This document shows, one piece after another, positions 47,639 through 50,920 of a stretch of DNA of 64,000 bases; position 1 is the first letter of the stretch, and the number at the start of each line of letters is the position of its first letter. Both the position numbers and the translations under genes were made by a program. The notes under the pieces are model-generated. The model had not been told where the DNA came from. It saw nothing but the letters and a program-made list of their open reading frames with translations, and ran no database searches. Source of the DNA: an uncultured Acidimicrobiia bacterium (GTDB lineage Bacteria > Acidobacteriota > Terriglobia > Versatilivoradales > Versatilivoraceae). The DNA is taken from positions 299,654 through 363,653 of the forward strand of contig CAWBAT010000003.1 of the NCBI GenBank assembly GCA_963786955.1. Reading direction: 5' to 3'.

Positions 47639-48574
47639 CTCACTGTTCTCCTGGTGATCTCTCCAAATGGCTTCCCAATATTTGAAACTTGCTTGATAAC
47701 GACCCGCTCGGCTGATGAATTCCTTATGGAGTCTGGGATTCAAGGGTCTGGTCGTGGCTCCCCTTCAAACCATCGTCATCCTCATATGGGGGTGTCTCCC
47801 ACTCTTTCTCAGAAATACTTCATTTTTCTTCTTCTACTCACTAATGCGAGAAAAGCGAAGTCAGGGGGCCCAAAGAAAACAATTTTTTTTGCTTGATACA
47901 TCCATTAAAATTCTTGATTCGCGCAACGTCGTATACAGATAAAGAGTCGAATCCGAGGTTTTTGTGACATCGTTCCGTCGTTTTTCTTTTAGGGCCTCTA
48001 GATTTCGCATCGTCGAGCTCGAATACTCAGTGCTCAGTTTCACGGATACCGTCACATATGTTCGCCAGTGAGCGCGCGCTCCCGCCTGCGTTTAAGCGTG
48101 CTTCGGAGCGCCCGCTCCACCCCACTCCGTTGGCAGCTCGAAGCTGTGTTACCTTATTTCTGAAATGGAGAACCATGTTGCAGAAGTTCGTCCTGTAGCC
48201 GGACACGCGTCAGTTGGCGGAAGACTGGCCGGGGGTCAGCGATCCCGGGTAAGACATTTGGGCATAATTTGGGAGTCGGCCCTTGGCTACTTAGATCAAG
48301 CTTGTTCATGGTTTATCCCTCCATGCGATCAGAGTGGGCAACCTATGTCTGCAGCGAATCACGGAATTGTCATGATTCTGTGATATTGTCTGAAGGCTGC
48401 GTGGTCATATCTCATCCATCGAATCCGAGATCAGCGATTCTCGGCCACAACTAGCTTCTCCTTCGCGGTTAGTGTTATTACACGGACATCTTGTTCACTT
48501 TTCCTAAATGGACTTTGGTAGCGCAGACCTGATTTCTAGGTCTGCGGTATCTAATCTTAATGACTCCTAATGTG

Positions 48575-48850
48575 ATTTTCCTTTTCGATCCCACTGTAAT
48601 TGGAATGGTTGTGAAGTGCTTGAAGGAGAGGTCAAGAATGTGTGGGGTTCTCGTGGAGTTTGTATCCTACGCTGCGAAAGGTGAGGATTCATTGGGGGTG
48701 ATCCGGTACCGTCTCGATTTACTTGCGTGACGTGGTCACGTGCGAATTGACGATGGAAGCGCTTTTCTGGGCGATTGCTGTCCCCCGATGTGGCTACATG
48801 CTTGCTGAGTGTGGAAAGGCAGCTAACCGTTGGGAGCGTGGAGGTTCCCC
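48575..48850 (-). repeat. Degenerate copy of the response-regulator 3' end plus promoter, copy 3
   Basis: Homologous to 55845-56118 and 58800-58985. Confidence 0.85.
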
Positions 48851-49034
48851 TCACCTGGTCCTGACGGATCACCCTTATAGTCGGTACAACAGGGTTGCCC
48901 GAGGATGAGTATATGAATAGCCGTCGTAGCGTTTCTTCTTTTTTGCCTCTTTTTTCTTTCTTTGTGGAAGCTGTGGATTTTGTGCAAAAGCCATGAAGGC
49001 CAACAGAACCATACCCCTCGTTGAGGGAATTGGG

Positions 49035-49200
49035 ATTAAATGGAGGGGTTGTCACCCGCCATCCTCCCGTTACGAACAAACCACCCGATCGTGCGACGAT
49101 CAGGGAGAGACTTTCGAACGGGAGGGGGCTGGAGCTGAAACGCATTCTCAGAGGCTGCCCCGAGAGGACTCCCCTATAAGGGTTGCGCGGGCCCCAGCTG
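49035..49200 (+). ncRNA. Predicted bridge RNA
   Basis: Target loop CCACCC (49081-49086) / GGGAGAG (49103-49109). Donor loop CTCAGAGG (49147-49154) / CTATAAG (49174-49180). Each pair lies within stems. Confidence 0.85.
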
Positions 49201-49239
49201 GCGAGGTTCCTTCTCTTTATCCTAGAACGGGAGGAGATC

Positions 49240-50516
49240 ATGAGTTCTGATTCTGAAATTGCTGCCTTCATTGGTTTAGATTGGGCCGACCAACAACATG
49301 TCATTTGTCTGCGGGCGGCCGGCTCTGGTCAGGTCGAATCTCTAGTGGTGGACCAAAAACCGGAAAGCCTGCAAGCTTGGATCCAGCAATTGCGACTGCG
49401 ATTTGGGGGCCGCCCGGTAGCCATCATCCTGGAGCAATCGCGGGGCGCCTTGTTGTATGCCTTGATGGACGTGGACTTCTTGCGGCTCTATCCAGTCAAC
49501 CCTCTAACCTTGGCCAAGTTTCGCAAAGCCCTCTATCCCAGTGGCGCCAAGGATGATCCCACCGATGCCGCGCTCTTGCTGGAACTGCTGGAGAAGCATC
49601 GGGAGCGCCTCCGCGTTTGGGTTCCCGACGACCCCGACACCCGCTGCCTGCGCCTGCTCAGCGAAGCGCGACGCAAGCTGGTCAACCAGAAGACCGCTCT
49701 GACCAACGAGGTCACCAGCCTGTTGAAAGGCTATTTCCCTCAAGCCTTGTCCTGGGCGGGAGATCCCGACACCTTGCGGGCTTGTGATTTTCTGCAAAAG
49801 TGGTCCAGTCTGGATCAGCTGCGCCGGAGTTCCAGGACCACTCTGGAGAAATTTTACCGCCATCACGGTTGCCCCTCGGGCCGGTCGATCGACTCACTGC
49901 TGGAAGAAATTCGCCAGGCTCAACCCCTGACGCGAGACCCCGCCGTCACCCGGGCCTCAGCCCTGATGGTGCAGGCCTTGATGCGCCAGGTTCGGGACCT
50001 GATCGAATCGATCTCCCAATTTAACCAACAAATCAAAGAGCTGTTTGAAAAGCATCCCGACTACGATGTGTTCCACAGTTTCCCCGGGGCCGGGCCGGCT
50101 TTGGGCCCCCGCCTCCTGACTTTGTTCGGATCGGATCGGAACCGTTTTCACTTGGCCTGCGAAGTACAGCTCTTGTGGGCATCGCCCCAGTCACCGAAAA
50201 AAGCGGCAAGTCCCATCGGGTCCATTGGCGGTGGGCTTGTCCGAAATTCTTGCGCCAAAGCGTCCAGGAATTCTCGGAACAGTCGATTCGCCGTTCCCTG
50301 TGGGCGCGGACCTGCTATGACCGCCTCCGCGCGGCCGGCAAGTCTCATCACGCGGCCCTGCGCGCCCTGGGCTACAAATGGCTTCGGATCATGTTCCGCT
50401 GTTGGAAGGAGCATACACCATACGACGAACAATATTACCTGGCTACCTTGCGGCATCGTGGGTCTCCCCTGGGAGAAGCATTGTCCCTCACAACCACGGA
50501 GACCATTTGTGAATAA
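49240..50516 (+). CDS. IS110-family recombinase/transposase, one frameshift near 50170
   Basis: FIGLDWA, AKDDPTDA, SFPGAG, GIAPVTEKSGK and ALRALGYKW motifs; RBS GGAGGAG. Confidence 0.92.
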
Positions 50517-50619
50517 ATTGTCATTTTCCTGTGCAAATAATAGTTGACTTATCACCTCAGAGGTCTCTCCCGCGTTTGGGAGAGGGAAGCCGAAAAGTTG
50601 AAAAAGTGTGGTTTAGGTC

Positions 50620-50920
50620 GCTGGGAAATCAGCGAGCGGTGAGATCGGTTTTGATCTTGGGCAGAAAGTGTTCCACCACCCAGATGCATGCGGCATCGAA
50701 CCCCCTGTTTGGAAGGCGATGTGTTGAGCGTCGAAACTGGCATATTGGACACGAAAATCTTTGGCATCCTCCAAGAAGACCTCTTCCTCCGCGGTCTCGA
50801 TGGAACACCGGTAAACCCATTGCTCGTGTCTTCCTTTCTTGTAGAAGAAGTGCCGGGAATCATTGTCCAGGGCCAAACTTGGTGTTATTTCCTTCCTAAT
50901 CACTCTTTCGTTTCCTTTTT
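50620..50920 (-). pseudogene. C-terminal remnant of a paralogue of the TPR/PD40 protein
   Basis: DSRHFFYKK...YRCSIET.EEEVFLEDAK...ASFDAQHIAFQT matches the C-terminus of 56689-58794. Confidence 0.85.

Follow-up and report, generated by a model that had tools for sequence, protein, structure and literature searches.

We analysed a stretch of 64,000 nucleotides (the window) from the genome of an uncultured Acidimicrobiia bacterium, placed by GTDB in the Acidobacteriota (assembly GCA_963786955.1, contig CAWBAT010000003.1, positions 299,654 to 363,653 of the forward strand). Our results led us to conclude, with high confidence, that positions 48876-50566 of the window are a copy of an IS110-group insertion sequence (IS) which moves by bridge-RNA-guided recombination. 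All of the sequence-level features that define the group, as described for the Escherichia coli element IS621, were found in it. The element and its insertion site are laid out as follows.

48866..48873, + strand: left target half (LT) GGATCACC, within a repeat resembling repetitive extragenic palindromic (REP) sequences (sequence; reconstructed empty site compared with its paralogue)
48874..48875, + strand: core dinucleotide CT, left copy (three-copy alignment)
48876..50566, + strand: IS110-group insertion sequence, 1691 bp including the right-hand CT (three-copy alignment, genome search, empty-site reconstruction)
50556..50566, + strand: left donor CTCAGAGGT (50556-50564) and right-hand core CT (50565-50566) (sequence, alignment)
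50567..50584, + strand: right target half, with CTCCC at 50567-50571 and then the rest of the hairpin (sequence)

The source genome (G000, 5.65 Mb in 9 contigs) contains two further copies, L002 and L003, which are 99% and 98% identical to the window copy and both lie on contig C4. The ends are identical in 3/3 copies, and all three are located at C-CT-CTCCC, at the 5' foot of a CTCTCCC/GGGAGAG hairpin. An earlier sequence-only reading of this DNA would have been refuted by other copies with different ends or unrelated targets; the two copies found, with the same ends and at C-CT-CTCCC in the 5' arm of REP-like hairpins, do not refute it. In the three-way alignment the limits of identity fall exactly at CT/TATAGT and AGAGGT/CT (the slash marks the limit), and CT is the sole sequence common to both junctions in 3/3 copies. 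The CT core was also found in 9/9 hand-parsed lineages of relatives. In the window the insertion reads GGATCACC-CT-(IS)-CTCCC GCGTTT GGGAGAG, and the REP-like hairpin at 50565-50584, made up of the right-hand core CT and the right target half, reads CTCTCCC-GCGTTT-GGGAGAG. The left end of the element is 364 nt long (48876-49239) and the right end 50 nt (50517-50566). The flanks of the three copies are given below.

Window copy: left GGATCACC, core CT, right CTCCCGCGTTTGGGAGAG
L002: left CTCCCATC, core CT, right CTCCCCCCGAAT...ATTCGGGGGGAGAG
L003: left TGGCCACC, core CT, right CTCCCCAAGGGAGAG

The empty site of each copy was reconstructed by joining flank, CT and flank, and was then matched to the genome. 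Uninterrupted paralogues were found at 97.5% identity over 122 nt (contig C7), 93.5% over 123 nt (C6) and 87.7% over 57 nt (C8), the last of which, G000:C8:441784-441840, corresponds to the window copy. The joined flanks match uninterrupted paralogous sites, which indicates that the element inserts precisely and without duplication beyond the CT core. An additional insertion was present in a contig of the public run X2, where the right end is followed by CTCCC-ACAAGGGGAGAG. In G000, 84 strand-wise matches to the pattern CTCTCCC-N(3-40)-GGGAGAG were counted (about 42 loci by halving), and these loci have flanking motifs in common.

The left end carries the bridge RNA, whose four guides are the left and right target guides (LTG and RTG) and the left and right donor guides (LDG and RDG). 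Its parts are as follows (MFE, minimum free energy).

49056..49200, + strand: bridge RNA core, about 145 nt, target-binding loop followed by donor-binding loop (covariance model, MFE fold, covariation)
49081..49086, + strand: LTG CCACCC, in the same sense as LT plus the first core base
49087..49101, + strand: hairpin inside the target-binding loop, GAUCGU-GCG-ACGAUC (sequence, MFE fold)
49103..49109, + strand: RTG GGGAGAG, exact reverse complement of CT+CTCCC in 3/3 copies
49147..49154, + strand: LDG CUCAGAGG; as DNA, CTCAGAGG(T) is the right-end sequence
49174..49180, + strand: RDG CUAUAAG, reverse complement of CT+TATAG at the start of the left end

The outer stem of the target-binding loop is formed by CCUCCCGUU.CGAA (49063-49076) and UUCGAACGGGAGG (49113-49125). 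The MFE fold of 49040-49215 yields this stem and, inside it, an internal loop in which CAAACCACCC precedes the hairpin GAUCGU-GCG-ACGAUC and AGGGAGAGACU follows it. The RTG is a perfect 7-nt match to the target in 3/3 copies, and the LTG agrees with the targets over 5 contiguous bases in the window copy, 6 in L003 and 5/6 in L002. When the left end was shuffled 200,000 times at the mononucleotide level, the four guide words never occurred in the right order (0/200,000). The guides were assigned by the rules of IS621, in which the LTG reads in left-target sense and base-pairs to the bottom strand, and the RTG is the reverse complement of core and right target (PMC11208160). In Rfam 15, the region 48500-50900 had no match at E 1 or better except a chance one to a long non-coding RNA family (16.9 bits against a gathering score of 40); no curated Rfam family covers the bridge RNA.

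To place the structure among its relatives, related elements were collected at two levels. Matches at E 1e-40 or better were found in 10 of 401 genomes of the phylum, G000 counted, and species-representative genomes gave 530 related stretches. The best 79 loci of these 530 came mostly from Acidobacteriota metagenome-assembled genomes, with a few from Verrucomicrobiota and other phyla. In the nine hand-parsed lineages the left end begins with TATAG and the right end finishes with CTC(A/G)(A/G)ATG(T/G), on either side of the CT core. RNAalifold was run on 9 sequences and recovered the target-loop stem, two donor-loop stems and the donor-loop hairpin, with compensatory changes in 15/31 pairs. One sequence, G201 (L019), was excluded from this alignment (A2) and from the model built on it, since a long insertion in its target-loop hairpin misaligned it; it was nonetheless matched by the model with 59.1 bits. 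In most lineages, a hairpin of different sequence occupies the position of the target-loop hairpin, as read from the printed sequences.

A covariance model was built from the nine-sequence alignment. In the window it gave a single match, at 49056-49200 (126.7 bits, E 6e-26). Among 73 further loci it matched 70, all on the strand of the gene and directly upstream of the recombinase gene, except for second matches in three loci; the three misses are due to a contig end that cuts those loci close to the gene. Loci L035 and L040-L044 had been left out of this search as the same records as G231 and G393, which were already used. In the alignment of model matches (43 distinct rows), 96.6% of the cells were paired and 27/31 pairs changed on both sides, compared with 27-44% of cells and 11-14 pairs in controls with slid partners, although an alignment fitted to the model favours the structure somewhat. 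All four guides of the window element fall within two internal loops of this covariation-backed structure, in keeping with the guide assignment of the sequence-only reading. That reading had also listed the ends, core, stems, hairpin and promoter halves, and each of these was recovered, together with the guide words, there or close by.

We then asked whether the guides of each element go with its own target. The table for this comparison held 29 distinct target loops, which are the 50 of 73 model matches with both ends plus the nine hand-parsed lineages, minus duplicates and cut flanks. The other 23 of 73 matches were excluded as their end motifs failed at one or both ends, and two more families were excluded as a contig end cut their flanks. 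The RTG showed a mean of 6.17 contiguous pairs with its own target and 2.52 with the targets of other elements; for the LTG, the means were 6.34 and 3.33 contiguous matches. The true sum of LTG and RTG was reached by 0/200,000 random permutations of the 29 loops. With the nine lineages alone, it was reached by 2 of the 362,880 target permutations, one of which is the true pairing itself. The elements are mutually related, so these figures are not exact probabilities, but the effect is still very large. The permutation tests replaced an unanchored longest-common-substring control on the nine lineages, which was noisy because several targets have CCACC-like words in common.

Single families show the same agreement. 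A family of 11 copies with the guides GUGUCGCC and GUCGAAG is located in GTGTCGC-CT-TCGAC. In a family of 12 copies with UCGUGCCC and GCGAAAG, 11/12 are in TCGTGCC-CT-TTCGC as judged by the left target half, and three of those 11 have TTCTC or TTCAC on the right. One copy of this family, L064, was observed at CGCCCACC-CT-CTCCCC, a site that is unlike its own guides and resembles the target of the window element.

The donor side was followed in the same way. The LDG varies with the donor: right ends CTCAGATG or CTCGAATG go with CUCAGAUG or CUCGAAUG, and L084, whose right end is CTCAGAGGT, has the LDG CUCAGAGG. LDG variants thus follow right-end variants in L005, G345 and L084. For the RDG, the mean pairing was 7.33 with the own donor and 7.62 with the donors of other elements, a control that cannot discriminate because the donor guides are too conserved across the clade. 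L005 is an intact paralogue on G000:C4 with an open frame of 433 aa, 53-54% identical to the two open reading frame pieces of the window copy. Its target is a different one, CACTCTGCC-CT-GGGCTATT, and so are its guides (RTG AGCCCAG, LTG UGCCCU); its LDG CUCAGAUG fits its right end CTCAGATGT. In the relatives, the guide positions covary with both targets and donors.

Downstream of the bridge RNA lies the recombinase gene, in two pieces.

49230-49236, + strand: ribosome-binding site (RBS) GGAGGAG, before the ATG at 49240
49240..50175, + strand: recombinase part 1, 312 codons, DEDD RuvC-like domain and linker (PF01548, NF033542)
50173..50177, + strand: frameshift site, with one C missing after 50176 and T at 50173 where the other copies have C
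50175..50516, + strand: recombinase part 2, 113 codons and stop, in the -1 frame, with the Tnp domain and the conserved SG serine (NF033542, alignment)

The first piece matched the full PF01548 model (DEDD_Tnp_IS110, 1-155) at 95.5 bits, above the cut-off of 29 (E 3.5e-27). The NCBIfam model NF033542, named 'IS110 family RNA-guided transposase', was matched at positions 1-248 by the first piece and at 257-343 by the second. As the frameshift splits the protein, the second piece scored 16.9 bits with PF02371 (E 0.0084), short of the cut-off of 21.3. The catalytic D/E/D/D columns, D19, E70, D111 and D114, are conserved with 8 relatives. The second piece aligns with relatives from GIAPVTxxSG onward, and the column of its SG serine is likewise conserved with 8 relatives; this serine of the Tnp domain is presumably the catalytic one.

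As assembled, the window copy lacks one base at about 50176 and therefore cannot encode the recombinase in full length. The frame loses sense at codon 312. A frameshift near 50170 had been noted from the sequence alone, and the reading frame does change at about 50176, where both other copies have the extra C. The majority consensus of the three copies gives an open frame of 425 aa that includes the C-terminal piece of the window copy, and the earlier estimate of a recombinase of about 425 aa holds for this consensus. The lesions are private to each copy. The window copy lacks a C after 50176 and a T after 48935 and has T for C at 50173; L002 has an extra G near 49494 and a CAG-to-TAG change near 49915; and L003 has six indels and 20 substitutions. 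Four public runs, all stored as contigs, were also compared. The C after 50176 was present in 2/2 covering runs (contigs of X1 and X3), and the extra T after 48935 in 4/4 runs. Undamaged versions of both sites therefore exist in public data, while these contigs cannot settle the state of the window copy because they may derive from other copies or related strains. Programmed frameshifting was also considered as the cause of the split frame and was rejected, as the gene runs across this point in a single frame in relatives and in the other copies.

The two ends of the element carry the halves of a predicted promoter, and a leader separates the left half from the bridge RNA.

48876..48881, + strand: -10 half TATAGT at the start of the left end; the promoter would be formed only at the circle junction (sequence, conserved)
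48932..48989, + strand: leader, a polypyrimidine tract and then TGTGG repeats, 87% identical to the paralogous L005/L006
48981-48989, + strand: leader word TGTGCAAAA, reverse complement of the DnaA-box consensus
50544..50549, + strand: -35 half TTGACT of the circle-junction promoter (sequence, conserved in lineages)

When the ends are joined through a single CT, they give TTGACT-17-TATAGT, and the predicted junction reads ...CTCAGAGGT-CT-TATAGTCGG.... TTGA(C/T)N was found in the right end, 17-18 nt from the CT-core end, in 10/10 lineages, and TATAGN directly after the core in 9/9 lineages with the left end in the locus. No sigma-70-like site was found in the linear region 48700-50700 (0.8 expected in shuffles), and this simple scan thus lends no support to an internal promoter for the bridge RNA. 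A simple scan of the + strand of the leader gave no terminator-like site. In public RNA runs only 5-8% of the sampled words were present.

These features suggest how the element would move. From its homology with IS621, it would be expected to excise as a circle, in which the right and left ends would be joined via a single CT and the promoter TTGACT-17-TATAGT would arise. This junction promoter may then transcribe the left end with the bridge RNA of about 145 nt (49056-49200). The target-binding loop would pair with the REP-like hairpin site. At the junction, the donor-binding loop would pair with both ends: with the right end through its LDG CUCAGAGG, and with CT-TATAG of the left end through its RDG CUAUAAG. 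Finally, the DEDD/serine recombinase would bind the RNA and exchange strands at the CT core, giving an insertion without duplication beyond CT. Membership of this family also suggests that the enzyme is a programmable orthologue, as had been proposed for it from the sequence alone.

Several observations weigh against this interpretation. None of the three copies has an open recombinase frame; the first stops come after 435 aa in the window copy (out of frame), 105 aa in L002 and 154 aa in L003. The fit of the LTG is imperfect, and the base after it (G) is unable to pair with the second core base. The donor-loop hairpin (49157-49172) has a C-A mismatch where 8/9 lineages have U-A (columns 113/126); the mismatch, which could weaken the RNA, was observed in all three genomic copies. 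The joint of the circle junction was not seen in the four runs, which consist of contigs only and cannot show rare forms. And, unlike in IS621, a leader of about 170 nt separates the bridge RNA from the predicted junction promoter. Might the lack of open frames be only apparent? If assembly errors had produced the frameshift (about 50176) and the loss of a T after 48935, the window copy would be intact and autonomous in the cell. Both single-base deletions are absent from the other two copies and from every covering run, and the assembly has only 9 contigs, which made us guess that it comes from long reads, where single-base indel errors are common. However, the deletion at 50176 is outside a homopolymer run and 3 nt away from a second difference, T for C at 50173. 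The lesions in the other two copies are different ones and include a CAG-to-TAG substitution, which is not an indel-type error, and the run contigs may stem from other copies or related strains. We consider assembly errors a possible but rather unlikely explanation. Unless they are the cause, the family looks recently active and now decaying in G000.

A broken element could also be moved by a relative. The three copies would then be non-autonomous and mobilised in trans by the recombinase of L005 (G000:C4), which is intact at 433 aa and belongs to an element whose bridge RNA is built in the same way and whose donor ends are almost identical. Its protein is only 53-54% identical, however, and its donor differs at a position read by the guide (CTCAGAGGT versus CTCAGATGT), with each RNA fitting its own end, and we regard mobilisation by L005 as very improbable. 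Even less credence is due to the older view of IS110 non-coding ends, by which the left-end structure would merely regulate expression of the transposase and the matches to the target would be coincidental. The leader and the structured RNA do lie directly upstream of the RBS, as this view would have it. In contrast, the loops follow their own target and donor across the 29 distinct loops, the stems stay paired through compensatory changes, and the four guide words in order were never met by shuffling, with neither the permutations nor the shuffles reaching the observed state in 200,000 trials. Our results thus favour bridge-RNA-guided recombination as the way in which this element has moved.

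Compared with E. coli IS621, the window element is alike in having a DEDD RuvC-like domain and a Tnp domain with a conserved serine, a CT core with a long left end and a short right end, a left-end bridge RNA with the target loop 5' of the donor loop and the same guide polarity, a REP-like target, and a -35 in the right end and a -10 in the left end that would be united only in the circle (PMC11208160). The two elements also differ. The protein of the window family is 425 aa long, about 100 aa longer than the 326-328 aa of IS621, and the sequence similarity is only remote: L005 matched the IS621 structure 8wt6 over the Tnp domain only (E 5.3e-8), with its GIAPVTxxSG motif aligned, and the N-terminal piece of the window copy had no match in the PDB at E 0.001 or better. 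With 364 nt, the left end exceeds that of IS621 (191 nt), and the window element has the leader of about 170 nt before its bridge RNA. In most of the window's clade the LTG stops at the first core base, as read from the table of loops, and the insertion point of the window copy is at the 5' foot of the hairpin.

The choice of a REP-like target has parallels in Pseudomonas putida, where ISPpu9 is said to be an IS110-family element that inserts into REP sequences. For ISPpu10 of the same species, a preprint describes an IS110-family element that inserts into REP sequences with a stem-loop adjoining the base-paired site, and puts forward a 'dual-match' idea with a structural role for the hairpin in recognition (bioRxiv 10.64898/2026.03.19.712850). 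The host phylum of the window element is different from that of ISPpu10 and ISPpu9, which are likened to it by their description. Targeting of stem-loop repeats by IS110 elements is already documented for IS621 (PMC11208160) and ISPpu10 (bioRxiv 10.64898/2026.03.19.712850). The IS1111 group has the same two-domain type of recombinase and RNA-guided logic, and its elements are described as having the guide RNA in a long right end and sub-terminal inverted repeats of 7-17 bp (PMC11208160). The window element, in contrast, has a right end of 50 nt and its RNA in the left end, and it is set apart from IS1111 by end length and RNA position.

The leader was also compared among relatives. Its polypyrimidine tract, TTTCTTTTTTGC.CTTTTTTCTTTCTTT, is followed by TGTGGAA-type repeats, and the block recurs in a subclade that includes the window element, L005, L016, L014, L015, L038, L056, L058, L060, L084, L099 and L036. 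The motif TGTGNAWAA (or TTWTNCACA) occurred 14 times in 12/41 distinct leaders, compared with 0.36 expected in shuffles, an enrichment that is overstated because the leaders are related. We take TGTGNAWAA to be the reverse complement of the DnaA-box consensus TTWTNCACA. The DnaA box had no mention among the matches listed in a literature search. One idea, which we hold to be improbable, is that in one subclade of this large uncharacterised clade, remote from IS621, the leader couples expression of the bridge RNA or recombinase, or the handling of the circle, to DnaA or replication status. If true, the leader would be a layer of host input not described for IS110 elements.

Some further observations were made on the target repeats and on related elements. 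The REP-like family of G000 consists of several subfamilies with the CTCTCCC/GGGAGAG hairpin and CCCCCTCACC-type flanks. Six unoccupied CACCCTCTCCC sites are left in the genome, and two of the six, C1:22088 and C6:776145, have a full GCCACC match to the LTG. REP elements typically occur as many dispersed palindromes and in association with a RAYT transposase; Y1_Tnp (PF01797) gave 21 matches in G000. L004 (G000:C8:261342-262262, minus strand) is a fragment of a related element with 67% nucleotide identity, which contains only the donor-binding loop (model positions 92-134) and about 310 recombinase codons. It is directly flanked on both sides by halves of the REP-like repeat, and may be a product of aberrant recombination or deletion.

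Three relatives have unusual RNA arrangements. The left end of L014 (G084:C77) contains a tandem duplication with two target-binding loops and gave a second, partial match to the covariance model. The guides of the two loops differ slightly (UUUCCCACCC with AGCGAGG; UUUCCCGCCCC with AGCAAGG), and L014 could be a natural bridge RNA of two specificities or a decaying duplicate. In L037 and L079 the recombinase gene lies between two bridge-RNA-like sequences, the second of which follows it directly. In L037 the RTG of the downstream RNA, AGCUGAG, fits the right flank CT-CAGCT. No TATAG boundary was found within 330 nt of the upstream RNA in L037 and L079, and the region upstream of this RNA appears conserved between the two genomes. 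L037 and L079 may be larger or rearranged elements.

The window also contains a different IS110-type gene, with an open frame of 360 aa (PF01548, 53.5 bits). Three copies with identical scores were found, two of them inverted relative to each other close to where the window begins.

Window, about 639-1070, - strand: IS110-type gene, 360 aa (PF01548)
Window, about 1903-2334, + strand: second copy (PF01548)
G000:C4:440759-441190: third copy (PF01548)

In conclusion, this kind of element is already well described, and our results leave the understanding of how such elements work unchanged. For the annotation of G000, they account for three repeat-associated insertions and for a set of pseudogenised transposase genes. 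They add a natural, computationally validated example of bridge-RNA guidance in which the ends, core, target, RNA structure and all four guides are defined. The host phylum has received little study, and the recombinase clade is distant from the enzymes of IS621, IS622 and ISCro4, which have been characterised; the element is also a further case of homing to hairpin-forming repeats. Within the clade, the target loop has been naturally 'reprogrammed' into 29 versions, and rules for guide design could be drawn from them, for example from LTGs that reach only the first core base.

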